Shown in pieces: positions 9,972-63,945 of a stretch of 64,000 nt of DNA. Every line of letters begins with the position of its first letter. The first letter of the stretch is position 1. Source of the stretch: Patescibacteria group bacterium (lineage in GTDB: Bacteria; Patescibacteriota; Patescibacteriia; UBA1558; GWA2-36-10); the NCBI GenBank assembly GCA_041650755.1, contig JBAZKN010000001.1, forward strand, positions 70,796 through 134,795, in the 5' to 3' direction. The notes under the pieces are model-generated. The model had not been told where the DNA came from, searched no databases, and worked only from the letters and a program-made list of their open reading frames with translations. The position numbers and the translations under genes were made by a program.

Positions 9972-9980
9972 AAAAGCCAT

Positions 9981-10053
9981 TATGCCGGTTACGCTACTAG
10001 CTCCTAATCGTTCAAGCGTCCATATACAAACGATTATTCACAGCCTCATTTTG
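9981..10053 (+). repeat. Structured repeat copy B
   Basis: tatgccggttacgctactagctcct / AATCGTT caagcgtccatataca AACGATT / attcacagcctcatttt. Confidence 0.7.
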
Positions 10054-10133
10054 ATCCTCGATATATTGAAATGAACTTTAACAAAATACACCTCCCATTT
10101 AAGAGGCGTAACCGTTAAAGTCATTTTGACTAT

Positions 10134-10203
10134 TATGCCGGTTACGCTACTAGCTCCTGACCACCCAAGCGTCCATATACAGGTGGTCATTCATAGCCTC
10201 ATT
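10134..10203 (+). repeat. Structured repeat copy C
   Basis: tatgccggttacgctactagctcc / TGACCACC caagcgtccatataca GGTGGTCA / ttcatagcctcatta. Confidence 0.7.
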
Positions 10204-10269
10204 AGTGTATTATATTGTTAACAATTAGCAATATATCATATTACCCATATTTTGTCAATAGGGGATAAA

Positions 10270-14849: not shown

Positions 14850-16010
14850 ATGCACACCAAGCATCTTTTAGTTTTGAATCCAGGGTCAAGCAGCTTGCGG
14901 CTGACGGTTTTTGAAATTAAAGACAAAAATGTTGGCAGCCTGGTTTTTAATGGCATGGTCAGCGGGCAGAACGGTAAAACAGTCCTAATGTATCAGGCGC
15001 GCGGCCAAAAACAAAAAATAAATTATTCAGTTGGGCACAATTTGAAAGCCTGGTGGCAGTATATTCACGATTTGCTCAAAGATTTTGATATAGATATGGT
15101 TGGCGTCAGGGTGGTGCATGGCGGGGAACTGTATACCAGTACTTGTCGAATTGATAAGCAGTTTTTGGCTAATATTAGCCAATTTAATGTTTTAGCACCA
15201 TTGCATAATCCAGCCGCTATAGAATTAATCAAGCTAGTTCAGGCCACTTGGCCAAGAAGTAAGCTAGCCGCTAGTTTTGATACAGCTTGGTACAAAGATT
15301 TAGCGCCGGAAGTTTATCTTTATTCTTTACCTTTAAAATATTACGAAAAAAATAAAATTCGCAAATATGGTTTTCACGGGCTTAGCCATGAAGCGGCTAC
15401 TAATTTTGCTGCCAAAAAATTACGTCTGCCCTTAAATCAATTGCAAGCCATTAGCTGCCATTTGGGTGCCGGTGCCAGCCTTAGCTGGTATATCAAGGGC
15501 AAAGTCAAAGATACAACTATGGGCTTTTCGCCCAACGAAGGCCTGACTATGGCTACTAGATCGGGTGATCTGCCGTCAAGCATTGTCTTGTATTTGGCTC
15601 AAGAGCTCAAGATGTCTTTGCCGGCAATCCATAAAATGTTCAATGAACAATCCGGTCTTTTGGGCATATCCGGACTATCTGATTTGCGAGAAATACTGTT
15701 GGCTGCCGGCTATCGAGTCCAAGGGTATAAATCCAGCTTGAAATTTAGCGCTGAACAAAAAAAGAAGGCTAAACTAGCCCTAGCTATTTATATTTATGAC
15801 ATCAAGCGCTACTTGGCTTCATATATAGCCATGACGCAAAAATTGCAAGCCATAGTTTTCACCGGCACAGTAGGCGTCAATAGTCCGGTTATTAGAAAAC
15901 TTGTTTTAAAAGATTTACAAATTCCTAAAAATTGCAAAATCTTCGTTGCTCCGGAAGGAGAAATGACGATGCTTGCCCAAAAAACACTACAATGTTTGCT
16001 CAAAAAATAA
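14850..16010 (+). CDS. ackA: Acetate/propionate kinase
   Basis: LVLNPGSSSLRL; GFHGLSHEAA; VHLGAGAS-like HLGAGASLS. Confidence 0.9.
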   Translation: MHTKHLLVLNPGSSSLRLTVFEIKDKNVGSLVFNGMVSGQNGKTVLMYQARGQKQKINYSVGHNLKAWWQYIHDLLKDFDIDMVGVRVVHGGELYTSTCRIDKQFLANISQFNVLAPLHNPAAIELIKLVQATWPRSKLAASFDTAWYKDLAPEVYLYSLPLKYYEKNKIRKYGFHGLSHEAATNFAAKKLRLPLNQLQAISCHLGAGASLSWYIKGKVKDTTMGFSPNEGLTMATRSGDLPSSIVLYLAQELKMSLPAIHKMFNEQSGLLGISGLSDLREILLAAGYRVQGYKSSLKFSAEQKKKAKLALAIYIYDIKRYLASYIAMTQKLQAIVFTGTVGVNSPVIRKLVLKDLQIPKNCKIFVAPEGEMTMLAQKTLQCLLKK

Positions 16011-23801: not shown

Positions 23802-24854
23802 ATGTTGAGGAGATTTTTCCGCAAATTTTCTAAGGATATGGGAATTGACCTGGGTACGGCCAATACTTTGGTTTATGTGCGCGATCAAGGCATTGTGATC
23901 AATGAACCCAGTGTGGTAGCAGTCAATAATCGAACAGAAAAAATTATTGCTGTCGGGGAGGATGCCAAAATAATGTTGGGCAAAACCCCAATGCATATTA
24001 CCGTGACCAAGCCTTTGGTGGACGGGGTGATTTCGGATTTTGAGGTATCAGAAAAAATGATCAAGCATTTTATTGAAAAAGTGCATCGTGAATCTATGAC
24101 TTTTGTCCCGCGACCTAGGGTGGTAGTAGCTATTCCTCTGGATGTCACCGAAGTAGAGCGTAAAGCAGTAGAAGATGCGGTCTTGCGTGCTGGTGCGGCG
24201 GAAGTCTTTTTGATTGAAGAGCCAATGGCCGCAGCTATTGGCGCTGGCTTGCCTATTCAAGAAGCGGCCGGCAGCATGATAGTGGACATTGGTGGCGGCA
24301 CTACGGAAATAGCCATTATTTCTTTGTCGGGCATTGTGTCTTGGAAATCATTGAAATTGGCCGGCGATAAACTAGATGACGCCATTATCCAATATGCCCG
24401 CGATAAATTTAATTTACTCTTGGGCCAACGGACAGCGGAAAAAATAAAAATGCAAGTTGGCTCGGTTTTACCACAAGATCAGACACTGGAGACTATTATG
24501 CGCGGTCGTGATTTATTGACCGGCTTGCCCAAAGAGGTGCATATTACCGATGCTAATATTCGCGAAGCTATTGCCAAACAAATTAAGTTGATTATTGATA
24601 ACATCAAAAATACGATTGAAACAGCGCCGCCAGAGCTAGTATCTGATTTATATGAGCGAGGCATGGTTTTGACTGGTGGCGGAGCTATGCTGCGAGGGTT
24701 GGATGAGTTGATTGCCAAAGAAACGAAAATGCCGGTTCATATTACTGATGAGCCATTGACGGCAGTGGTCAGGGGCACTGGTAAGGTTTTGGATGATCTG
24801 GAAAATTTAAAAGAAATTTTATTGCCCCCAACTCGAGATATTGGTTTGGGCTAA
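23802..24854 (+). CDS. mreB: Rod-shape-determining protein MreB
   Basis: N-terminus MLRRFFRKFSKDMGIDLGTANTLVYV parallels E. coli MreB; actin-fold motifs. Confidence 0.9.
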   Translation: MLRRFFRKFSKDMGIDLGTANTLVYVRDQGIVINEPSVVAVNNRTEKIIAVGEDAKIMLGKTPMHITVTKPLVDGVISDFEVSEKMIKHFIEKVHRESMTFVPRPRVVVAIPLDVTEVERKAVEDAVLRAGAAEVFLIEEPMAAAIGAGLPIQEAAGSMIVDIGGGTTEIAIISLSGIVSWKSLKLAGDKLDDAIIQYARDKFNLLLGQRTAEKIKMQVGSVLPQDQTLETIMRGRDLLTGLPKEVHITDANIREAIAKQIKLIIDNIKNTIETAPPELVSDLYERGMVLTGGGAMLRGLDELIAKETKMPVHITDEPLTAVVRGTGKVLDDLENLKEILLPPTRDIGLG

Positions 24855-30627: not shown

Positions 30628-31063
30628 GGCTTAAGCTGACCCTGTAAGCCGAATTCTGTCTAGGATGATCATCTATCTAGGCCTAACATTGCTGTTAAGC
30701 TCAAGCGGTTTACCCGCCATACACCATATGGTGCATGACCTACTTAACCTTTCACCAAGTAGAGTTTGCCTCTTTTAGCTTGTCACCAAGCTAACGTGTC
30801 TAGTCATTACCAGACAATTTCACCCTTATCCACCTAGGCCGAAGCTTTGGCGGAAGGAATATTTTCTGTTGTACTTGTCCTGATCAATGGGTCACCCCTT
30901 TGATCGGTTGGCGTTACCAACTACTCTTTTATCGGTGTTCGGACTTTCCTCCCCGAACCACTCGCTTTGCTCGGGTATCAGGGCAGAACTCCTGAAATTC
31001 CCTTACGTGGTTAGCCATTTACCAGAGCAAGGCGAGTGGTTCGCGGCGATCATCTGGGCCAAT
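30628..31063 (-). ncRNA. rnpB: RNase P RNA (bacterial type A)
   Basis: Minus-strand sequence contains GGAAAGTCCGAACACC (P4), AGGGTGAAATTGTCTGGTAATGAC (P10/11 region), ACAGAATTCGGCTTACAGG (3' P4 strand), and P1 pairing of ggcttaa with ttaagcc. Confidence 0.8.
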
Positions 31064-41915: not shown

Positions 41916-42413
41916 TTGATTTTTTCATTTCTTTATCCTATGCCTAATTTTAGCAAATTTTTACCAACTGAGGAAGGTCTTGATTTGCTGATTTATCCTA
42001 AAGAAGCGGCCTACAAGCTGTATTTGTGGCTATTATTTTTACTGGTAGCTTTTTTTATGATGTATCCGCTTTGGCATTTGGGTAGGCCGGGCATATTTTT
42101 ATGGCTTACCATGACTGCGTTTATATTATTGGCGATTGCTAATCATTTTTTACGCCGTTTTAGCTACTATATATTAAGCACCAATAAACTTTGGCATGTT
42201 TTTTATATCAAGGCTGATAATATTAGGATCAGGGGGTCGATAGATAGGGGATTGATCATTGCTTTAGAAAAGTGCGGCGACCATGATATTTTGGTGCTGA
42301 CCAAACAAAATCGATATTATTTAAAAGATATAAAACAGCGCGATCAGGTTTACGCGGCATTAGTGACAAAATTAAATATAGCGGCTTACCAAAAAGACGT
42401 AAATTTGTTATAA
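41916..42413 (+). CDS. Hypothetical membrane protein (2 TM plus PH-like C-terminus)
   Basis: 165-aa ORF; hydrophobic pair at residues 35-80. Confidence 0.5.
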   Translation: MIFSFLYPMPNFSKFLPTEEGLDLLIYPKEAAYKLYLWLLFLLVAFFMMYPLWHLGRPGIFLWLTMTAFILLAIANHFLRRFSYYILSTNKLWHVFYIKADNIRIRGSIDRGLIIALEKCGDHDILVLTKQNRYYLKDIKQRDQVYAALVTKLNIAAYQKDVNLL

Positions 42414-42897: not shown

Positions 42898-45354
42898 ATG
42901 GAATTTACCGTTGAAAATATAGCTGTTGTCATTAGCCTGGTTATTATTCTTAGTATTATTTTTCCCGTGATCGCAAATTATCAAAAAAATAAGGTTGATA
43001 AGAATTTAAAATTGGACATGTTATTGATTAAAGTGCCGAAATATACCAAGCAAGAAAAAGAAGAGTTGTCCAAACAATACATTGAACAGACTTTAGGTAA
43101 AATTGAAAATTTTTTTTCTGCCCTAGCTGGCCTCAAGGCCGAACATCCTTTTTTGGGGCAAGCCAAAGAAATTTTTTCCCTAGATATTGTTTCGGTAGAT
43201 GGTTTTATAAATTTTTACGCGGCCGTGCCGCCAAAATTTAAAGACTTCTTTATTGCCCAGCTGCAGGCTGTCTATCCCAAAATTTATGTAGAAGAAGTGG
43301 TTGATTATAATATTTTTCAGCCACAAGGACAGGTCTTGGCTGGCAATTTATCTTTTGCCAATGATTTTACTTTACCCATCAAGACATATAAGACTTTTGA
43401 AAATGACCCCTTAGAGGGAATTACCAATACCTTAAGTAAGCTGACCAACGACGAATCGGCTGTTGTGCAATATGTCTTTAAATCTGCCCCCAAAAAATGG
43501 CATCAACGCGGCCGTCAACTGGCTCAAAAAATGCAAGCCGGAGCTACTTTTGCCGATGCTATTAAACAGGTTGGTGGCACTTCTTTTTTTGATAAATTGG
43601 AAAAAACAGGTAGTTTTTTTGGCAGCTTTTTTGCTACCAGTAAAAAAGAGGATGAGCAAAAAAAGAAATCCCTGGAAGTCAAACAGCCCTTGTCAGCCAT
43701 GGAACAAGAGCGGGCCAAAAGCCTAGAAGCAAAAACTTCTAAAGCTGGTTTGGATGTCAATATTCGCATCGTAGTTTCAACCAGAAGCTTGGAGCGCTCC
43801 AAGGCAGTTTTACTGGACGTTCTCAATAGCTACAATCAATATAATATTTATGAGTTTGGCAATCGTTTTCAAGCCAGTATACCGCGCCACCCGGATACTA
43901 TTATTGAGTACTTGATTTATCGACATTTTTCAAACAAGCGTAAACTTTTGCTCAACGCTGAGGAAATGGTCAGCGTGGTGCATCTGCCTTTACCGACCAC
44001 TGAAACGCCAAATATTGATTGGCTAGAAGCTGTCAAGGCGCCACCGCCCAGCAGTCTGCCCAGCGAAGGCATTATTTTGGGCAAAAGCATTTATCGTGGC
44101 AAAGAAACTTTGGTGCGCATCAAGGATGCTGATCGTCGGCGACACATGTACGAAATCGGCCAGACCGGTACTGGTAAGTCTGCCTTTATGGAAAGCTTGA
44201 TTAAACAGGATATTGAAGCTGGCAAAGGATTGTGCGTGATTGATCCGCACGGTGAATTGGTAGAAAGATGCTTAACCTATATACCAAAAGAAAGAGCCGA
44301 AGACGTGATTGTTTTTGATCCATCGGATACTGATCGGCCAGTAGCCATTAACATGTTGGAATATGATACCGATGAACAGAAGACTTTTGTGATCAACGAA
44401 ATGATCGCTATCTTTGATAAGCTTTATGATCTGAAAGCTACTGGTGGGCCGATGTTTGAGCAATATATGCGTAATGCAATGCTTTTGGTGATGGACGACA
44501 AAGATTCGGGAGCGACTTTGTTGGAAGTGCCGAGAGTCTTGTCAGATGAAGCTTACCGCAAGCACAAGTTGAGCAAGGTCAAGAACCGCTTAGTCAAAGA
44601 TTTTTGGGAAAAAGAAGCGCAAAAAGCCGGCGGTGAAGCGTCCCTAGCCAATATGGTACCCTATATCACTAGCAAGCTCACGCCTTTTATTGCCAATGAT
44701 ATCATCCGGCCGATTATTGCCCAGCAAAAAAGCGCTTTCAATTTTCGTGAAGCAATGGATAGCAAAAAGATTATCATGATCAATCTATCCAAGGGCAAAA
44801 TTGGTGACATGAATAGTAGCCTTTTGGGCATGATTATTATTGGTAAACTACTATTTGCCGCTTTGAGCAGAGCGGATTATACTGAAGAGCAACGCAATGA
44901 TTTTTATCTCTATATTGATGAGTTCCAAAATTATACTACCGATAGTATCGCTATTATTTTATCCGAAGCCAGAAAATACAAACTGAATTTAATTATCGCT
45001 CATCAGTATATCGCTCAGCTGGTAAAAAATAACGACACCAAGATTCGAGATGCTGTTTTTGGCAATGTCGGCACTATCATCGCTTATCGTCTAGGCGTAG
45101 AGGACGCAGAGGTGATTGCCAAGCAAATGGCCCCGGTGGTTACTGAATATGACCTGATCAATATGCCAAAATTTACGGCTTATATAAAATTATTGATTGA
45201 TAATGCCAATCCGCCAGCCTTTAATTTTAATCCCATTAGGCCGGAAAAAGGCAACTTTGAGCTAGCGGCGGCCATCAAACAATTGTCTCGATTAAAATAT
45301 GGCCGTGATAGAAAAACAGTAGAAGACGAGGTTCAGCAAAGGATTATCATTTAG
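42898..45354 (+). CDS. Membrane-anchored FtsK/HerA-superfamily (VirB4/VirD4/DUF87-like) P-loop ATPase, fused N-domain plus ATPase
   Basis: N-terminal TM; Walker A IGQTGTGKS followed by VIDPHGEL (DPHGE signature); Walker B YIDEFQNY; ARKYKLNLIIAHQYIAQL; FGNVGTIIAYRLG. Confidence 0.75.
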   Translation: MEFTVENIAVVISLVIILSIIFPVIANYQKNKVDKNLKLDMLLIKVPKYTKQEKEELSKQYIEQTLGKIENFFSALAGLKAEHPFLGQAKEIFSLDIVSVDGFINFYAAVPPKFKDFFIAQLQAVYPKIYVEEVVDYNIFQPQGQVLAGNLSFANDFTLPIKTYKTFENDPLEGITNTLSKLTNDESAVVQYVFKSAPKKWHQRGRQLAQKMQAGATFADAIKQVGGTSFFDKLEKTGSFFGSFFATSKKEDEQKKKSLEVKQPLSAMEQERAKSLEAKTSKAGLDVNIRIVVSTRSLERSKAVLLDVLNSYNQYNIYEFGNRFQASIPRHPDTIIEYLIYRHFSNKRKLLLNAEEMVSVVHLPLPTTETPNIDWLEAVKAPPPSSLPSEGIILGKSIYRGKETLVRIKDADRRRHMYEIGQTGTGKSAFMESLIKQDIEAGKGLCVIDPHGELVERCLTYIPKERAEDVIVFDPSDTDRPVAINMLEYDTDEQKTFVINEMIAIFDKLYDLKATGGPMFEQYMRNAMLLVMDDKDSGATLLEVPRVLSDEAYRKHKLSKVKNRLVKDFWEKEAQKAGGEASLANMVPYITSKLTPFIANDIIRPIIAQQKSAFNFREAMDSKKIIMINLSKGKIGDMNSSLLGMIIIGKLLFAALSRADYTEEQRNDFYLYIDEFQNYTTDSIAIILSEARKYKLNLIIAHQYIAQLVKNNDTKIRDAVFGNVGTIIAYRLGVEDAEVIAKQMAPVVTEYDLINMPKFTAYIKLLIDNANPPAFNFNPIRPEKGNFELAAAIKQLSRLKYGRDRKTVEDEVQQRIII

Positions 45355-45359
45355 ATATT

Positions 45360-45381
45360 TTAGCTAATATTAGCCAAAATA
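45360..45381 (+). repeat. Conserved 22-nt intergenic motif TTAGCTAATATTAGCCAAAATA, copy 1
   Basis: Identical to 63760..63781; the core is shared with 55423..55440. Confidence 0.6.
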
Positions 45382-52645: not shown

Positions 52646-52746
52646 ATACTTGTCAAAATCAAAGATTATGCTACAATAGTGTGGCAAATATTGAATATTA
52701 TTTATGCTAAAGCTCTTAACTTTAGCATAAATTATTAATAAAAAAT

Positions 52747-54429
52747 ATGAATAAATATCAGTCCAGTTCTCATAAGGTTATGTCTGCCCAGAGAGTTAAG
52801 ATTACTTTTGTGGCCATTATTATTTTGGCTATTTTGGGTTGCTTGGTGGCCCTGCCAAAACCAGGCTTTATACCCAATAATAATTGGTTTAGGCAGTTTA
52901 AAATACACTTGGGCCTTGATTTGCAGGGCGGCACCCATCTGGTTTATCAAGCAGATGTATCACAAGTGCCGGATAATGAGCGTCGCGATAGAGTGGAAGC
53001 CTTGCGGGACGTGATTGAACGCCGGGTAAACGCCTATGGCGTGTCTGAACCGGTTGTCCAGACCAATTATAGCGGCGATAATTATCGTATTATTGTTGAG
53101 CTGGCCGGGGTGACCGATGTCAATCAAGCTATCAGTATTATCGACAAGACTCCTTTGCTCGAATTCAAGACACAAGGCCAGGCTCCTATTGATAATAATG
53201 ACCAGAATGCCGTTCGTGATAAAGCCAACGACATATTACAGCGAGTACTGAAGGGCGAAGACTTTGCTGAGCTAGCCAAGCAATATAGTGAGGATCCAGT
53301 TTCAGCTGCTCAAGGCGGAGATTTGCCTTGGGTGACCAAAGGCAAATTTGTCCCAGAATTTGATACAGCCATTTTTGATCAGCTAAAGACAGGCGAGGTA
53401 GATAAACAATTAGTTGAATCTCAATTTGGCTATCATATTATCAAAAAAATAGAGGAGAGAACCAATGACAGTGGCGAAAAGGAAGTCCATGCCGCCCATA
53501 TTTTGATAAAAAAAATTGACGCTGATATGGTCTGGGAGGATACTTCTTTGAGTGGCCGCAATATCAAAAAAGCCGAGTTAAGCTTTGATCAGAATACTCA
53601 AGAGCCCTTGGTCTTAATTAACTTTGATGACCAGGGTAAAGAAATTTTTGCTGATCTGACCACTGCCAACGTCGGTAAGCCAATCGCCATATTTTTGGAT
53701 GGAGTTTTACGCTCTGAGCCGGTTGTGCAAGAAGCTATTACTGACGGAAGTGCCCAGATTTCCGGAAAATTCACCATCAAAGAAGCCAAACAGCTCGTCA
53801 AAGACTTGAATTTAGGCGCCCTGCCTGTGCCAATAAAACTAGTGACTCAACAAACAGTTGGCCCTACTTTGGGGCAAGTGTCGCTAGACAAAAGTTTGAT
53901 AGCTGGCATTATTGGTTTTTTGGCAGCTGCTTTATTTATGCTCATTTTGTATCGTTTGCCGGGTATTTTAGCAGTGGTGGCCTTGGGGCTATATACTATT
54001 TTGAGTTTGAGTATTTTTGAAATTATACCAGTAACCATGACCATGGCCGGCATTGCTGGTTTTATTCTATCTATCGGCATGGCTGTGGATGCCAATATTT
54101 TAATATTTGAAAGAACCAAAGAAGAGTTATATAAAGGCAAAACTTTATGGACTGCCATTGAAGAAGGATTCAGCAGAGCTTGGCCATCAATTCGCGATTC
54201 AAATGTTTCCTCAATTATTACTTGTATAATTTTGGCTTGGTTTGGCACTTCGATTATCAGAGGTTTTGCTATTACCTTGGGGATAGGTATCTTGGTGTCC
54301 ATGTTTTCCGCCATTACCGTGACCCGCACCTTCTTGTACTTAGTTGTTAACAAAAAATTAGAAAATAAATTGAGTTGGTTTGGCGTACATATTACTAAAA
54401 CCACCGAAGAACAACAAAACCATGTATAG
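52747..54429 (+). CDS. secD: Protein translocase subunit SecD with a parvulin-like (PpiC-type PPIase) insertion
   Basis: LGLDLQGGTHLVYQAD and the SecD TM bundle; inserted segment (about 53180-53530) EDFAELAKQYSEDPVSAAQGGDLPWVTKGKFVPEFDTAIF...SQFGYHIIKKIEER...VHAAHILIKK. Confidence 0.85.
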   Translation: MNKYQSSSHKVMSAQRVKITFVAIIILAILGCLVALPKPGFIPNNNWFRQFKIHLGLDLQGGTHLVYQADVSQVPDNERRDRVEALRDVIERRVNAYGVSEPVVQTNYSGDNYRIIVELAGVTDVNQAISIIDKTPLLEFKTQGQAPIDNNDQNAVRDKANDILQRVLKGEDFAELAKQYSEDPVSAAQGGDLPWVTKGKFVPEFDTAIFDQLKTGEVDKQLVESQFGYHIIKKIEERTNDSGEKEVHAAHILIKKIDADMVWEDTSLSGRNIKKAELSFDQNTQEPLVLINFDDQGKEIFADLTTANVGKPIAIFLDGVLRSEPVVQEAITDGSAQISGKFTIKEAKQLVKDLNLGALPVPIKLVTQQTVGPTLGQVSLDKSLIAGIIGFLAAALFMLILYRLPGILAVVALGLYTILSLSIFEIIPVTMTMAGIAGFILSIGMAVDANILIFERTKEELYKGKTLWTAIEEGFSRAWPSIRDSNVSSIITCIILAWFGTSIIRGFAITLGIGILVSMFSAITVTRTFLYLVVNKKLENKLSWFGVHITKTTEEQQNHV

Positions 54430-55391: not shown

Positions 55392-55422
55392 TTCAGTTTA
55401 AAGAAAATTATTATTTTTATTT

Positions 55423-55440
55423 AATATTAGCCAAAAAATG
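55423..55440 (+). repeat. Conserved intergenic motif core AATATTAGCCAAAA, copy 2
   Basis: Shares the 14-nt core with 45360..45381 and 63760..63781. Confidence 0.5.
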
Positions 55441-55496
55441 ACATTATTTTAAACTCTATTTTGCGTTTTTTCTATTTGAGGGTTGACTTATTTTAA

Positions 55497-55550
55497 AAAA
55501 TGTGTTATTCTATGAAATGTTTAAAAAGTAAACACATTTTTAAACGTTTA
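55497..55550 (+). promoter_or_regulatory. Nested palindromic operator-like site immediately upstream of the sigma-r4/HARE-HTH gene
   Basis: aaatgtttaaaaa...tttttaaacgttt (13-nt arms, 1 mismatch) plus aaatgtgtt/aacacattt; ends 11 nt before the ATG. Confidence 0.5.
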
Positions 55551-55560
55551 AGTAAAACAT

Positions 55561-56667
55561 ATGGAATCTATATTGGATCAAGTGATTACTGCCAGACATT
55601 TGTCAAATTTGGCAAATTTTAATCCCCATCAAACCCTAGATAACATCTTGGCGGCTTTGTCAGACCGCGAACGCGAGATTATTAAGTTGCGTCATGGTTT
55701 ATCTGGTTATGAAAAAAAGACCTTGGAGGAAATTGGCCAAAAATACAAAGTCACTCGTGAAAGGGTAAGGCAGATTGAGAATACTGCTCTCAAGAAAATC
55801 ACCAAAAATTTTGATCAAACCTATCTTAAGGAAATAGAAGATATTGCCAATGGCATTTTATCTGAACATGGCGGCATGATGTCAGAAACCAATTTAATCA
55901 AAGAATTATTGACCGTGCCCGGTAATACGCCGGAGAATCAGGCAGCTATTCGCTTTATCTTAAATCAATTACTGAAAAACCGTTTTCACTTCATCAAAGA
56001 ATCCAAGGATTACCATAATTTTTGGAAAACTCCAGAGTCTTCCCAAGGTTTTTTTGAAGAAACCATTGATCATATTGCTAAATTGATCCATGGCCATGGT
56101 ACGCCATTGCCCTTAGAACATCTTTTATCAAAAATTCAACAGCATGATTTTTATAAAGATAATGATGATTTGACTGATCGAGTGATTGTCAACTTTATTT
56201 ACATCACCAAAAAACTAAAGGCCAACCCTTACGATGAGTGGGGTTTGGCAGAATGGTCAGCCATCAGTCCGCGTCGCATGAACGACAAAATTTATCTGGT
56301 CTTGAAAAAGGAAAATCGCCCCATGCACTTTACGGAAATTGCCGATATGATCAATAAAATGCAGTTTGATCAGCGTCAAGCCTATCCGGCCACCATCCAT
56401 AATGAATTGATTTTAGATGATAAGTACGTTTTGGTGGGCCGTGGTATTTATGCCTTATCAGAATGGGGCTATAAGCCGGGCGTGGTCAGCGACGTGATCG
56501 CTGAAATTTTACAAGCCAATCCACAAGGCTTAAGTAAAAAGGAGATTATTGCCGAAGTATTAAAAAAGCGCTTAATCAAAGAAACCACTATTACTTTAGC
56601 CCTGATGAACAAAGATCGTTTTATCCGCAATGAACGAGGTCGCTACACTTTGAAAACTAATGCTTAA
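55561..56667 (+). CDS. Sigma-70 region-4-like HTH protein fused to tandem HARE-HTH domains
   Basis: LSDREREIIKLRHGL...TLEEIGQKYKVTRERVRQIENTALKKI (sigma r4); later PYDEWGLAEWS and LVGRGIYALSEWGY (HARE-HTH hallmark). Confidence 0.65.
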   Translation: MESILDQVITARHLSNLANFNPHQTLDNILAALSDREREIIKLRHGLSGYEKKTLEEIGQKYKVTRERVRQIENTALKKITKNFDQTYLKEIEDIANGILSEHGGMMSETNLIKELLTVPGNTPENQAAIRFILNQLLKNRFHFIKESKDYHNFWKTPESSQGFFEETIDHIAKLIHGHGTPLPLEHLLSKIQQHDFYKDNDDLTDRVIVNFIYITKKLKANPYDEWGLAEWSAISPRRMNDKIYLVLKKENRPMHFTEIADMINKMQFDQRQAYPATIHNELILDDKYVLVGRGIYALSEWGYKPGVVSDVIAEILQANPQGLSKKEIIAEVLKKRLIKETTITLALMNKDRFIRNERGRYTLKTNA

Positions 56668-56786
56668 ATGAGATTTTATTACAAGAACAACCGGTTTCCA
56701 CTTGGGGCGGTTGTTTTTGTTTCCTACTACTTTAAAAATTTTGCAAAAAAAGGTATAATATACTGGTAGCCCATCAAAAAATAGCT

Positions 56787-58289
56787 ATGAATTTTAGCGT
56801 TGAGGTCAATAATTTTATCAATACACTACTGACTATAGGTTCTTTGCCACCGGATATAGCTTTTATTTATTTAATGACCCACTATATCTGGCCAATTTAT
56901 GTTGTCATGATTTTATGGATGGCTTATGATGTTTGGCTGACGTCTCTGCAGAATAAGTGGTTTGCTACTCACAAGTTCATCCTTTTGGCTATTGATATAC
57001 CTAAAGATACCGAACAGACACCAAAGGCTATTGAGCAACTATTTGCCACCCTATCAGGCGCTCATACGCCCATCAGTACTCGCGATAAATATGCTGGCAT
57101 GTTTCAGCTGTCATTTTCTTTTGAAATTGTCAGTATAGACGGCTATATTCAATTTTTGATTCGCACTCCCAGCCACTGGCGGGATCTGGTAGAGAGTTCC
57201 ATTTATTCACAGTATCCCGATGCAGAGATCACTGAAGTGGAGGATTATACCACTGATTTGCCGCGTAAATTTCCCGACGACAAATACAATATGTGGGGTG
57301 CGGAAATAGTTTTGGTAAATAAAGATGTTTATCCCATAAAAACTTATATTGATTTTGAAGATGCGGTTTCCGGAGAATTCAAAGATCCAATGGCCTCAAT
57401 TTTGGAAACTATGAGTAAAATACAGGCCGGTGAACAGGTCTGGGTGCAGCTGATAGTCAGACCGACTGACCACCTCTGGACTAATCGTAGCAAAGCTGAA
57501 GCCGACAAATTGGCTGGTAAAAAGGTTAAAGCACAGAAAGGTTTATTGGAAAGACTGTTTGGCCCTCTGTTTGGTTTATTTTTCCTGTCTGGCGGCGACT
57601 CTATTTTTTGGCCAACTGGCGCTGAATCCAAATCAGAAAAAAAGGCCAATGAACCAATTAGCTTGATGCTGTATATGACCCCGGGAGAGAGAATAAAGAT
57701 TGAAGCAGTAGAAAAAAAGGCATCCAAAATAGGCTTTCAATGCAAAATTCGCTTGGTCTATCTATCGCCCAAAGAGCAGTATAATCCCGGCAGGGTAGTT
57801 TCTTCGGTGTTTGGTTCGCTGAAACAGTTTAGCACCATGCATTTGAATTCTTTTAAGCCCGATGCTAAAACCAAGACCAAAATAGAGTGGATTATGGTCA
57901 AAACCAGGACCAATTGGCGCCGTACAAACCTCATTAGAGCCTATAAGAGCCGCAGCGGCATCATCGGACATGGCTATTTTATATTAAATACCGAAGAACT
58001 AGCTACTTTGTGGCACTTTCCTAGCAAATTTATTCGCACGCCTTTATTGCAAAAAACAGAGTCCAAAAAAGCCGAACCGCCAGCTTCTTTGCCTATTATG
58101 TCTGGAATTTTTGATACCCAGACCGAGCAGGCAAGCGCTGAATTACGCCAGCAGCTAAAAACAGTGCCGGAATTCAATATACCCCTGGACAATACTTATT
58201 TTGAGGAGCGCTTTGCCAAAGACAAAAGCCAGGTCAAGCCAAGACATACAAAAAACGAGCCACCGACTAATCTACCCGTTACCAAATAA
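56787..58289 (+). CDS. Membrane-anchored N-domain protein, paralogue of the N-terminal half of 42898..45354
   Basis: 2 TM at the N-terminus; FSFEIVSIDGYIQFLIRTPSHWRDLVESSIYSQYPDAEITEVEDY aligns with FSLDIVSVDGFINFYAAVPPKFKDFFIAQLQAVYPKIYVEEVVDY. Confidence 0.65.
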   Translation: MNFSVEVNNFINTLLTIGSLPPDIAFIYLMTHYIWPIYVVMILWMAYDVWLTSLQNKWFATHKFILLAIDIPKDTEQTPKAIEQLFATLSGAHTPISTRDKYAGMFQLSFSFEIVSIDGYIQFLIRTPSHWRDLVESSIYSQYPDAEITEVEDYTTDLPRKFPDDKYNMWGAEIVLVNKDVYPIKTYIDFEDAVSGEFKDPMASILETMSKIQAGEQVWVQLIVRPTDHLWTNRSKAEADKLAGKKVKAQKGLLERLFGPLFGLFFLSGGDSIFWPTGAESKSEKKANEPISLMLYMTPGERIKIEAVEKKASKIGFQCKIRLVYLSPKEQYNPGRVVSSVFGSLKQFSTMHLNSFKPDAKTKTKIEWIMVKTRTNWRRTNLIRAYKSRSGIIGHGYFILNTEELATLWHFPSKFIRTPLLQKTESKKAEPPASLPIMSGIFDTQTEQASAELRQQLKTVPEFNIPLDNTYFEERFAKDKSQVKPRHTKNEPPTNLPVTK

Positions 58290-58291
58290 AT

Positions 58292-60001
58292 ATGAATGTT
58301 AATGATATAACAACTTTTGCTGAGACTAATTTCCGTAATTCACGGGTAAAGTTTGGTATTAAGACAGACGATAGGCGCCGACATATGTATATTATCGGTA
58401 AAACTGGCATGGGTAAATCAACCTTGTTGGAAAACATGATCATTCAGGACATCCAGGCCGGCAAAGGAGTTTGCGTAGTCGATCCACATGGTGAGCTGGT
58501 TGAAAAAGTGATTGATTTTATACCACAGAACCGCATCAATGATGTAATTTATTTCAATCCCGCTGACCTTGAATACCCGATAGCCTTTAATGTGCTGGAA
58601 AGCGTCAACATCGAGCAACGCCATTTGGTAGTTTCTGGATTGATCGGTGTCTTTAAAAAGATCTGGGCTGATTCCTGGGGCCCAAGACTAGAATATGTTC
58701 TGCATCATGCAATTTCTGCTTTGCTGGAATATCCTGGCTCGACCCTTTTGGGCATTATGCGCATGCTGACGGACAAAAAGTTTCGTGAGCGGGTAGTTGA
58801 TAAAGTGACCGATCCAGTGGTAAAGGCCTTTTGGGTTGATGAATATTCTCGTTATCCAGACAATCTCAAGGCCGAAGCCATTGCTCCGATTCAAAACAAG
58901 GTAGGCCGATTTTTATCCTCTTCTTTGATTAGAAACGTCCTGGGCCAGGTCAGATCTTCCTTCTCAATGCGGGAAATTATGGATGGCAAAAAAATATTGT
59001 TACTAAATTTATCCAAAGGCAGGGTGGGCGAGGATAACTCGGCTTTACTTGGCTCCATGATGATCACCAAGATTCAGCTGGCTGCCATGAGCCGGATAGA
59101 TACCCCGGAACAGGAGCGCAATGATTTTTACCTTTATGTTGATGAATTTCAAAATTTTGCCACCCAAAGTTTTGCCAATATTCTATCAGAAGCGCGTAAG
59201 TATAGGCTGAACTTGATCATGGCCCACCAATATATTGATCAATTAAAATGGGGTAATGATGAAACGGTCAAGTCGGCAGTCTTTGGTAATGTCGGCACCA
59301 TCATTGCTTTCCGCGTTGGTGCTACTGATGCGGAATTTCTGGAAAAAGAATTTTTCCCGGTTTTTACTCAAGAAGATTTGGTCAATCTGTCTAAATACGA
59401 AATTTATCTAAAATTAATGGTTGATGGCGTAGCCACTGAGCCATTTTCAGGAGTAGGCTTGCCGCCGGTAATATTACCTGCCGAATCAATCGGCATCAAA
59501 GAAAAGGTGATCAAAGTATCCAGAGAAAGATATGCCAAGCCCCGCGAGATTATTGAAGATAAAATCGCTCGTTGGGCAGAAAATAAAGAGGGCAAAGAGC
59601 CAGAAAAAAACAGCAAAGAAGACAGAGTAAAAAAATCCAAAAAAAAAGGCGATGAGGAAAGAAAATCTGGTTCCAAAAAGCCAAAAATCAGCAAAATAAT
59701 AAATTGCACTTACTGCGGTAAAGAAGCGGAAATCAATTTTGAGCCCGATCCTACTAGGCCAGTATACTGCGATGATTGTTTGATACTGGCCAAACAAGGA
59801 AAAATTCCCTCTCCTACCAGTATCAAAATACTCAAAGAAGAGTCAGCCAGTAAAAAAGTAGATGATGATCAGACCAAAGAACAGTTTATCTCTCTATCGG
59901 AAGCAATAAAATCAAATAATCTTCATTCTGGCAAAGAAAAAAGTAAGCAAGTGGCCGAGGATGAGCATCTGCTTCAGCCAGGACAAATTGTTAAGTTTTA
60001 A
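58292..60001 (+). CDS. FtsK/HerA-superfamily (VirB4/VirD4/DUF87-like) ATPase with C-terminal Lys-rich linker and zinc ribbon
   Basis: IIGKTGMGKST Walker A; VVDPHGELVE; YVDEFQNF Walker B; ARKYRLNLIMAHQYIDQL; C-terminus CTYCGKEAEINFEPDPTRPVYCDDC. Confidence 0.75.
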   Translation: MNVNDITTFAETNFRNSRVKFGIKTDDRRRHMYIIGKTGMGKSTLLENMIIQDIQAGKGVCVVDPHGELVEKVIDFIPQNRINDVIYFNPADLEYPIAFNVLESVNIEQRHLVVSGLIGVFKKIWADSWGPRLEYVLHHAISALLEYPGSTLLGIMRMLTDKKFRERVVDKVTDPVVKAFWVDEYSRYPDNLKAEAIAPIQNKVGRFLSSSLIRNVLGQVRSSFSMREIMDGKKILLLNLSKGRVGEDNSALLGSMMITKIQLAAMSRIDTPEQERNDFYLYVDEFQNFATQSFANILSEARKYRLNLIMAHQYIDQLKWGNDETVKSAVFGNVGTIIAFRVGATDAEFLEKEFFPVFTQEDLVNLSKYEIYLKLMVDGVATEPFSGVGLPPVILPAESIGIKEKVIKVSRERYAKPREIIEDKIARWAENKEGKEPEKNSKEDRVKKSKKKGDEERKSGSKKPKISKIINCTYCGKEAEINFEPDPTRPVYCDDCLILAKQGKIPSPTSIKILKEESASKKVDDDQTKEQFISLSEAIKSNNLHSGKEKSKQVAEDEHLLQPGQIVKF

Positions 60002-63759: not shown

Positions 63760-63781
63760 TTAGCTAATATTAGCCAAAATA
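63760..63781 (+). repeat. Conserved 22-nt intergenic motif, copy 3
   Basis: TTAGCTAATATTAGCCAAAATA, identical to copy 1. Confidence 0.6.
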
Positions 63782-63856: not shown

Positions 63857-63945
63857 ATGGGCGTAGCTCAGTCAGGATCCCGGCCGGAAAGAGCGCTGCA
63901 TTATCGGTGCAGAGGTCGCAGGTTCAAATCCTGCCGCCCATACCA
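63857..63945 (+). tRNA. Atypical 89-nt tRNA with a 13-nt palindromic D-loop insertion and nominal anticodon ATC (Asp codon GAU); isotype uncertain
   Basis: Acceptor atgggcg/cgcccat; U8; D-stem gctc/gagc enclosing agtcagg-atcccggccggaa-a; anticodon arm ctgca ttATCgg tgcag; T-arm gcagg ttcaaat cctgc; encoded CCA. Confidence 0.55.

Follow-up and report, generated by a model that had tools for sequence, protein, structure and literature searches.

A sigma region 4 and winged-helix gene downstream of secD and secF

The 64,000-nucleotide (nt) stretch analyzed here (the window) comes from a Patescibacteria group bacterium (assembly GCA_041650755.1, contig JBAZKN010000001.1, positions 70,796 to 134,795, forward strand). 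Its subject is a gene at 55561 to 56667, downstream of secD and secF and upstream of a split ATPase module, whose product joins a sigma-70 region 4 to four winged helices. A sequence-only reading of the same DNA had described a sigma region 4 fused to two tandem HARE helix-turn-helix (HARE-HTH) domains behind palindromic operators, which might serve as a dedicated regulator of the ATPase module, and had started the gene at 55497, which belongs to the upstream palindrome; the gene begins at 55561. This start codon is sound, because the N terminus M-x-S-I-L-D-Q is common to the 26 homologs of the family alignment (identities of 45 to 100%). The gene and the domains of its product, with the basis of each assignment, are as follows.

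55561-56667, + strand: coding sequence of the region 4 and four-winged-helix protein (open reading frame [ORF], 368 amino acids [aa])
55624-55812, + strand: sigma-70 region 4, aa 22-84 (Pfam, PDB sequence and fold matches, invariant columns)
55816-56034, + strand: winged helix 1 (WH1), aa 86-158, divergent and mildly acidic (AlphaFold)
56038-56262, + strand: winged helix 2 (WH2), aa 160-234, acidic, ending in WGLAEWS (AlphaFold)
56272-56472, + strand: winged helix 3 (WH3), aa 238-304, a bona fide HARE-HTH, basic (PF05066, TIGR04567)
56476-56658, + strand: winged helix 4 (WH4), aa 306-366, a HARE-HTH-like repeat of WH3, basic (PF05066 below cutoff, hhalign)

Region 4 without regions 2 and 3

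Domain searches bore out the proposal that the N-terminal 80 or so aa correspond to sigma region 4. Pfam PF04545 (Sigma70_r4) matched aa 30 to 80 (E = 6.3e-18; 64.5 bits against a cutoff of 24.1), NCBIfam matches were limited to the C-terminal ends of the RpoD (best), RpoS, and MzaA models, and phmmer against the PDB returned SigA/RpoD/RpoS region 4 exclusively. Compared with solved SigA region 4, the domain was 40 to 54% identical and had the same fold. The lack of sigma regions 2 and 3 was likewise upheld, since neither PF04542 nor PF04539 matched even at an E value of ≤1, neither region was among the NCBIfam matches, and no region 2 or 3 fold was present in the AlphaFold model.

Eleven positions of region 4 were invariant in the 26 homologs (R36, E37, R44, L55, E56, T65, R66, E67, R68, R70, and Q71). 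Their aligned equivalents in Escherichia coli sigma-70 are presumably R554, E555, R562, L573, E574, T583, R584, E585, R586, R588, and Q589, which we take, from structures of sigma region 4 on −35 DNA, to be contacts with the −35 element. The recognition helix reads VTRERVRQIENTAL, against VTRERIRQIEAKAL in SigA, and the helix VTRERVRQIE is near-identical. Promoters with TTGAC-type −35 hexamers are present in the window. In sigma factors, region 4 is the helix-turn-helix responsible for −35 recognition and for docking on the beta-flap of RNA polymerase, and region 2 binds the core polymerase via the beta' coiled-coil and recognizes and melts the −10 element. Because the protein is without regions 2 and 3, and so without a means of beta' coiled-coil binding or −10 melting, it is not a sigma factor.

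An RpoD from Saccharibacteria has regions 2 and 3 and its own region 4, and so does the RpoD of Southlakia epibionticum (SEML1_0063), the sole true sigma factor annotated in that genome (PMC10633639). The window protein is therefore an extra region 4, and a split sigma factor, in which it would supply a region 4 missing from RpoD, was ruled out. Judged from the alignment, its region 4 is a duplicated copy of that of the primary sigma factor.

Winged-helix array

An AlphaFold model built on the 26-sequence alignment (predicted local distance difference test [pLDDT] score, 88.3; predicted template modeling [pTM] score, 0.76) showed a short N-terminal helix, region 4 (aa 22 to 83), and four winged helices (aa 86 to 156, 162 to 229, 240 to 299, and 309 to 364). 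PF05066 (HARE-HTH) matched the whole protein with an E value of 4.7e-12. When segments were taken separately, aa 236 to 306, which contain GRGIYALSEWGY, scored 29.0 bits against a cutoff of 25.9, aa 304 to 368 (WH4) scored 16.8 bits (E = 0.009), which is under the cutoff, and neither aa 158 to 238 (the WGLAEWS domain) nor aa 84 to 160 gave a PF05066 match; WH1 was without any Pfam match. TIGR04567, the model of the RNA polymerase delta subunit, matched aa 240 to 302 (43.7 bits against a cutoff of 42). Sigma70_r4 and HARE-HTH were thus both significant in Pfam, and the fusion of a sigma fragment limited to region 4 with HARE-type winged helices stands, as does the assignment of the GRGIYALSEWGY domain to HARE-HTH. 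Membership of that family is not supported for the WGLAEWS domain, and the winged helices number four rather than two, with WH3 and, marginally, WH4 as the HARE copies.

Conservation within the protein peaked in WH3 (PATIHNELILD...GRGIYAL.EWGY.PG), whose predicted recognition helix was invariant. Alignment of the family sub-alignments with hhalign linked WH3 to WH4 (90%), WH2 to WH4 (59%), WH2 to WH3 (33%), and WH1 to WH4 (28%), and because of these links, the array is probably an old fourfold repeat of which two copies have strongly diverged. Mean net charges in the family were +3.4 for region 4, −2.1 for WH1, −6.8 for WH2, +4.0 for WH3, and +4.3 for WH4. In the window protein, WH4 (net charge, +5) forms a folded, basic C terminus.

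Distribution of the family and essentiality of an ortholog

The family is Patescibacteria-wide, and its architecture is fixed. The best 120 database matches, from Patescibacteria, Parcubacteria, and Komeilibacteria, were all about 366 aa long and carried both PF04545 and PF05066. When the winged-helix array alone was used as the query in an exhaustive HMMER search, 480 clusters (50% identity) were found at an E value of ≤1e-30, nearly all of them 340 to 410 aa long with the array starting at residue 80 to 115. Full-length orthologs (33 to 42% identical) were present in Doudna-, Falkow-, Peregrini-, Kaiser-, and Saccharibacteria and in Paceibacterota. In a search of genome contigs, 66 of 80 loci matched region 4 only (ordinary sigma factors) and were set aside. 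No paralog of the protein was found within the window. Relatives are publicly named "sigma-70 family sigma factor," "sigma factor-like HTH protein," "RNA polymerase delta subunit," or "HARE-type protein," and annotations by NCBI or PROKKA also include "sigma-70 family RNA polymerase sigma factor" and "RpoS." No paper on the family or on DUF8128 was found in the literature. A defense-system component was rejected, as PADLOC gave a region 4 match to MzaA and weak matches but no recognizable system (the neighboring ATPase matched mad8 and HerA weakly). A phage origin was rejected too; the PHROGs matches of the protein were to sigma factor region 4 only.

SEML1_0294 of S. epibionticum ML1, annotated "RpoS," has 349 aa, with PF04545 at aa 27 to 72 and PF05066 at aa 225 to 283, ECOD domains given as "tri-helical, winged, winged, winged," and flags as a core, Patescibacteria-enriched family (PMC10633639). 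In the transposon sequencing (Tn-seq) data for this strain (ESSENTIALITY; PMC10633639, Tables S1/S2), the gene was scored ES/ES/ES, i.e., essential at all three time points, its insertions dropping from 24 in the input DNA to 1, 1, and 2 once selection had been applied. Its immediate downstream neighbor on that strand, SEML1_0293 (PMC10633639), is, judged by its length of 921 aa and a TrwB_AAD_bind domain at aa 402 to 719, a fused form of the DUF8128-ATPase module that is split in the window. SEML1_0293 was nonessential (NE/NE/NE; 87 to 120 insertions), and polar effects therefore cannot explain the essentiality of SEML1_0294. The text of that study discusses neither gene (PMC10633639).

Transcription unit and neighboring genes

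The features that delimit the gene downstream, and the module that follows, are listed here.

56681-56720, + strand: intrinsic terminator of the gene, stem ACAAGAACAACCG / CGGTTGTTTTTGT and then a T-run, kept in position in three orthologous loci (L081, L083, and L084)
56731-56759, + strand: separate promoter of the downstream module, TTTAAA-17-TATAAT (consensus scan; GTATAATATA invariant in four loci)
56787-58289, + strand: DUF8128 membrane protein, 500 aa, N-terminal half of a split VirB4-like protein (PF26449 on orthologs, AlphaFold, Foldseek)
58292-60001, + strand: VirD4/TraD/HerA-type P-loop ATPase, 569 aa, C-terminal half of the split module (Pfam, TIGR04272)

The position of the terminator and its T-run were conserved in L081, L083, and L084, with stem sequences that differed. 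In every locus with called genes, more than 100 nt (115 to 140 nt) separated the gene from DUF8128, and 2 to 10 nt separated DUF8128 from the ATPase. By these signals, the gene forms a transcription unit of its own, which starts at a conserved promoter of the extended −10 type and ends at the terminator of the gene.

The gene directly precedes the split module (56787 to 58289 and 58292 to 60001), as the sequence-only reading had stated, and this linkage is kept in other genomes. DUF8128, the most constant neighbor of all, was directly downstream on the same strand at 18 of 19 informative loci, spanning Komeilibacteria-like genomes, Saccharibacteria, Kaiserbacteria, Doudnabacteria, and Falkowbacteria, and consecutive NCBI locus tags gave the same adjacency in six further genomes. 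The order SecD-SecF-gene-DUF8128-ATPase was found in the window and in L002 to L005, L007, L010, and L081 to L086. In L008, L009, L011, and L013, the upstream genes were different (BipA or LeuRS), and DUF8128 was followed by YceG/MltG, with the ATPase not adjacent; in L006, the module was located 6 kb downstream of the gene. In this lineage, the module is followed by genes of the nucleoside phosphorylase and NUDIX types.

That the two downstream genes are halves of one module follows from phrog_5156, which as a single protein covers both DUF8128 (positions 36 to 356) and the ATPase (392 to 819). The ATPase carries the Pfam domains TrwB_AAD_bind, DUF87, TraG-D_C, and zf_Tbcl_2. The AlphaFold model of DUF8128 (pLDDT, 75) has a long N-terminal helix followed by alpha/beta domains, and its best Foldseek match was TrwK/VirB4 of the R388 type IV secretion system (E = 5.8e-5; TM-score, about 0.3). 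From this model, the two proteins together resemble a VirB4-like ATPase divided into two chains rather than a coupling protein whose membrane anchor is separate. A fused paralog of the module (818 aa) lies at 42898 to 45354 and is 27% and 44% identical to the split halves; two small ORFs without Pfam matches precede it. At its C terminus, the split ATPase has a CxxC-x17-CxxC treble-clef zinc finger (aa 470 to 497, 59699 to 59782; PF23477 and TIGR04272) after a lysine-rich linker, which is unusual among VirD4/VirB4-type ATPases.

Two observations concern secD. SecD (52747 to 54429) has a parvulin-type peptidyl-prolyl isomerase domain (PF13616/PF00639, aa 149 to 237) between SecD_1st and the P1 head, and an insertion of this type is also recorded for the SecD orthologs in L083 to L086. 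An inverted repeat at 52697 to 52735, with 16-nt arms (ATTATTTATGCTAAAG / CTTTAGCATAAATTAT) and a 7-nt loop, is not terminator-like and ends 12 nt before the secD start at 52747.

Promoter and inverted repeats upstream of the gene

Upstream of the gene, the following features were identified.

55420-55431, no strand assigned: degenerate copy TTTAATATTAGC of the 12-bp palindrome GCTAATATTAGC (conserved in two upstream alignments)
55483-55511, + strand: promoter of the gene, −35 TTGACT at 55483-55488, 17-nt spacer, TG at 55503-55504, −10 TATTCT at 55506-55511 (consensus scan)
55493-55544, no strand assigned: outer inverted repeat I3, arms 55493-55506 / 55531-55544, 24-nt loop, 13/14 complementary (93%)
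55515-55549, + strand: inner inverted repeat I4, arms 55515-55527 / 55537-55549, 12/13 complementary (92%)

The promoter has the form TTGACT-17-TGtTATTCT, of which TTGACT and TGTTAT.T were invariant in six orthologous loci, and transcription is predicted to start near 55518. In L081, L085, and L086, a G+C-rich secF terminator hairpin abuts the promoter upstream of the orthologs (L081:2142-2189, L085:5900-5958, and L086:5915-5943), its 3' arm (..GGGTT) running into the −35 TTGACT while the stem sequences vary.

Two nested, near-perfect palindromes upstream of the gene had been proposed as autoregulatory operators. Both are present, and I4 ends 11 nt before the ATG, but they overlap rather than nest: the I4 left arm lies inside the I3 loop, and the I4 right arm shares 8 nt with the I3 right arm. 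The I3 left arm consists of the promoter spacer and extended −10 element. An alignment of the upstream regions of five orthologous loci (L081 and L083 to L086; 72 to 76% protein identity) showed just two conserved blocks, the promoter and, upstream of it, one containing GCTAATATTAGC; the segment of the 5' untranslated region (5'UTR) that holds the right arms had another sequence in L081 and L084 and was missing altogether from L083, L085, and L086. Half-sites of I3 and I4 were found neither upstream of 56787 or 42898 nor elsewhere in the window, with counts at or near chance. Judged by this alignment, I3 and I4 are particular to this genome, a sequence-specific operator shared by the family is excluded at this position, and the proposed role as conserved autoregulatory operators was rejected. 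The DNA-reading residues of region 4 are invariant across the family, and a shared operator should therefore be conserved in sequence, which this one is not.

When the 230-nt spacer was shuffled with its composition preserved, a single repeat of this quality arose in 12% of the shuffles and a pair in 1.8%. The window holds 15 such repeats in total, 10 of them in about 5 kb of noncoding DNA, and most are terminator-like. When the promoter was held fixed and the 5'UTR was shuffled, a repeat bracketing the −10 element was reached in 4 of 500 shuffles for the window and in 2 of 500 for L084, where the repeat has a different sequence; by the same test, such a repeat was not significant (weak or absent) in the other four loci. 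The repeats in the window and L084 could have a structural role or be a mutational by-product, e.g., an inverted local duplication in variants with a long 5'UTR. As RNA, I4 folds with −10.6 kcal/mol (z = −2.95) and, given a start near 55518, is probably a 5'-terminal mRNA hairpin. Rfam gave no known RNA element at 55.3 to 55.6 kb.

A recurrent 12-bp palindrome

The copy at 55420 to 55431, between the secF terminator hairpin and the promoter of the gene, was the one palindrome that orthologous loci share upstream of the gene. GCTAATATTAGC, which is a perfect 12-bp palindrome with the extended form TTAGCTAATATTAGCCAAAAWA, occurred at the equivalent place in L083, L084, L085, L086, and L003. Within the window, there were perfect copies at 15168 to 15179, 45363 to 45374, and 63763 to 63774 and copies with one mismatch at 55420 to 55431, 24552 to 24563, and 41943 to 41954; elsewhere, the palindrome was found at L002:6794, L003:6180, L084:5870, and L085:5893. 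In 329 kb of Patescibacteria DNA, GCTAATATTAGC was counted 7 times (0.2 expected), compared to 0 times in 1.0 Mb from other bacteria. Its usual site is just past a stop codon, 40 to 60 nt upstream of the next promoter.

Comparison with known systems

The closest known counterpart of the N-terminal domain is region 4 of the primary (group 1) sigma factors SigA/RpoD, with which aa 22 to 84 share the fold, the recognition helix, and the −35 contact residues. The arrangement is different in that region 4 is N-terminal here, lacks regions 1.2, 2, and 3, and is followed by four winged helices. SEML1_0294 shares the PF04545 and PF05066 architecture, a similar length (349 aa), and the same downstream neighbor; it differs in that this neighbor is the fused DUF8128-ATPase protein (921 aa), and its sole functional datum is the essentiality found by Tn-seq.

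The delta subunit (RpoE) of Firmicutes RNA polymerase, which associates stoichiometrically with the core enzyme at the beta' shelf/jaw, shares the HARE-HTH domain, as WH3 passes the cutoffs of both PF05066 and TIGR04567. Delta has about 170 aa, with one HARE-HTH and a disordered tail (net charge, −47) that competes with nucleic acids, and its N-terminal domain is a polymerase-binding rather than a DNA-binding module (PMC7749165). The window protein has four winged helices and a sigma region 4 and no acidic tail, and because it lacks this polyanionic tail, it is not a delta subunit. Membership of the delta family was rejected also on the grounds that PDB sequence and profile searches with WH3 found no delta; by sequence, delta is kept as a distant relative of one domain, WH3.

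Three or four packed winged helices are also found in the tandem arrays of Pol III RPC3, SelB (WH1 to WH4), UFL1/DDRGK1, and ESCRT-II. Foldseek matches to these arrays were weak (200 to 300 columns; TM-scores, 0.15 to 0.24; identities, about 10%), and the likeness is to be taken as an architectural analogy, not as demonstrated homology. In Bacillus subtilis SigO-RsoA and in sigma appropriation by AsiA/MotA of phage T4, promoter recognition by sigma is split between, or taken over by, separate polypeptides. The window protein is not known to be related in sequence to either system, and here the host sigma factor is intact, so that a second region 4 would add to it or compete with it rather than supply a missing half.

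Role of the protein

The best explanation of the protein itself is that it is a cytoplasmic, single-copy housekeeping protein of Patescibacteria. With regard to function, we lean, somewhat short of an even chance, toward an uncharacterized general factor that is associated with RNA polymerase or with promoters, because two modules that contact polymerase in other bacteria are combined with housekeeping-level conservation, a fixed architecture, a single copy, and essentiality. Such a factor would act on sigma-A-dependent transcription in general. Its region 4 appears to keep the residues for a TTGACA −35 hexamer and the fold for docking on the beta-flap tip, and with this full set of residues and this fold, it could bind DNA resembling a −35 element or occupy the flap site of the polymerase. 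As region 4 has all the −35 residues of a primary sigma factor, a generic target rather than a private one is predicted. The acidic WH2 may be a surface for protein contact or a DNA mimic.

Several points weigh against this reading. Linkage to DUF8128 runs very deep, which would not be expected of a purely general factor and hints at some specific connection; a general factor leaves this linkage unexplained, which is the main reason why our confidence is no higher. The Tn-seq data are from one species, and the orthology of SEML1_0294 is based on architecture, length, and gene order. Its essentiality could stem from the repression of a toxic gene. Finally, architecture, conservation, synteny, transcription-unit boundaries, and the essentiality of the ortholog are observed, and from these we infer physical contact with RNA polymerase or the −35 element and a genome-wide role.

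It is doubtful that the protein is all of the following: an essential, Patescibacteria-defining accessory subunit of RNA polymerase, in which a delta-like array carries a duplicated sigma-A region 4 that sits on the beta-flap or recognizes a further −35-like element, maybe coupled to the VirB4-like ATPase and maybe reading GCTAATATTAGC. If it were, promoter control in these one-sigma organisms would be of a mode unseen in other bacteria. Patescibacteria make up a large share of bacterial diversity and have tiny genomes. Their transcriptional regulation is essentially unknown (PMC11665869), and the protein, if polymerase-associated, would add a new part to the basal transcription apparatus of bacteria and offer a tractable entry point into the control of gene expression in the group. 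A Patescibacteria-enriched core family, essential in the sole genome-wide mutant screen and joining two modules that contact polymerase in other bacteria, is a notable combination.

Other explanations were weighed against a general factor. That the protein is a dedicated local regulator, binding operators at its own promoter and controlling the adjacent DUF8128/ATPase module, is improbable. Gene order is kept across Patescibacteria classes, inverted repeats overlap the promoter in the window, an independent repeat of different sequence brackets the −10 element in L084 (2/500, against 4/500 for the window), and repression of a toxic ATPase could account for essentiality. However, the repeats lack sequence conservation and are missing from L083, L085, and L086, neither 56787 nor 42898 has one of their half-sites upstream, the gene is in every case a transcription unit of its own, and the DNA-reading residues are those of the housekeeping sigma factor and invariant across the family. 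In S. epibionticum, moreover, the ortholog is essential and the module dispensable (PMC10633639). A dedicated regulator of the ATPase module, as the sequence-only reading had proposed, is thus disfavored, with the essential ortholog set against a nonessential module, the separate transcription unit, and the generic −35 residues.

Slimmer still is the chance that the protein is a DNA-handling partner of a membrane translocase, its five helix-turn-helix modules holding DNA or recognizing a DNA feature and handing it to a VirB4/TraD-like motor, with an extra, essential role besides. The parallel would be the relaxosome accessory proteins that serve coupling proteins, and it is consistent with the deep conservation of the gene pair, with the TraG-D_C domain of the ATPase (described in Pfam as a "TraM recognition site"), with the resemblance of DUF8128 to the VirB4 N-terminal domain, with the basic charge of region 4, WH3, and WH4, and with the nucleoside phosphorylase and NUDIX genes after the module in this lineage. 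Yet DUF8128 alone follows the gene in L008, L009, L011, and L013, where the ATPase is not adjacent; the presumed partner is nonessential and the protein essential; the fused paralogous module at 42898 to 45354 has no such neighbor; and a sigma region 4 in DNA transfer has no known precedent.

We consider it quite unlikely that the protein is a genome-wide DNA-binding protein, either nucleoid-associated or a reader of modified DNA, that acts through HARE-HTH as in restriction-linked and ASXL proteins and might recognize GCTAATATTAGC. In the literature, HARE-HTH is elsewhere linked to the recognition of modified DNA, the predicted recognition helix of WH3 is invariant, and the 12-bp palindrome recurs in intergenic DNA of these genomes, with at least five orthologous loci having it ahead of the gene. 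Against this, no link between the GCTAATATTAGC motif and the protein was found, the distance of the motif to downstream promoters varies (about −92, −80, and −65), and no copy of the motif was observed at the Saccharibacteria loci, even though the protein is encoded there.

An alternative sigma factor, as in the public annotation, is effectively refuted: the strong region 4 match and the NCBI and PROKKA names speak for it, but no region 2 or 3 was found by Pfam (E ≤ 1), by NCBIfam, or in the AlphaFold model. The annotation "sigma factor" or "RpoS" is accordingly wrong and unfit for counting sigma factors in Patescibacteria genomes.

Other RNA features of the window

Tandem cyclic di-GMP-II riboswitch aptamers were detected on the − strand at 9974 to 10057 and 10127 to 10210 (64 to 65 bits against a gathering score of 53.5), and Rfam placed an RNase P RNA at 30629 to 31003. 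An 86-nt tRNA at 63857 to 63942 scored 57 bits with Rfam, was not called by ARAGORN, and may carry an insertion; upstream of it lie a TTGACA-16-TGtTAGCAT promoter and a GCTAATATTAGC palindrome.

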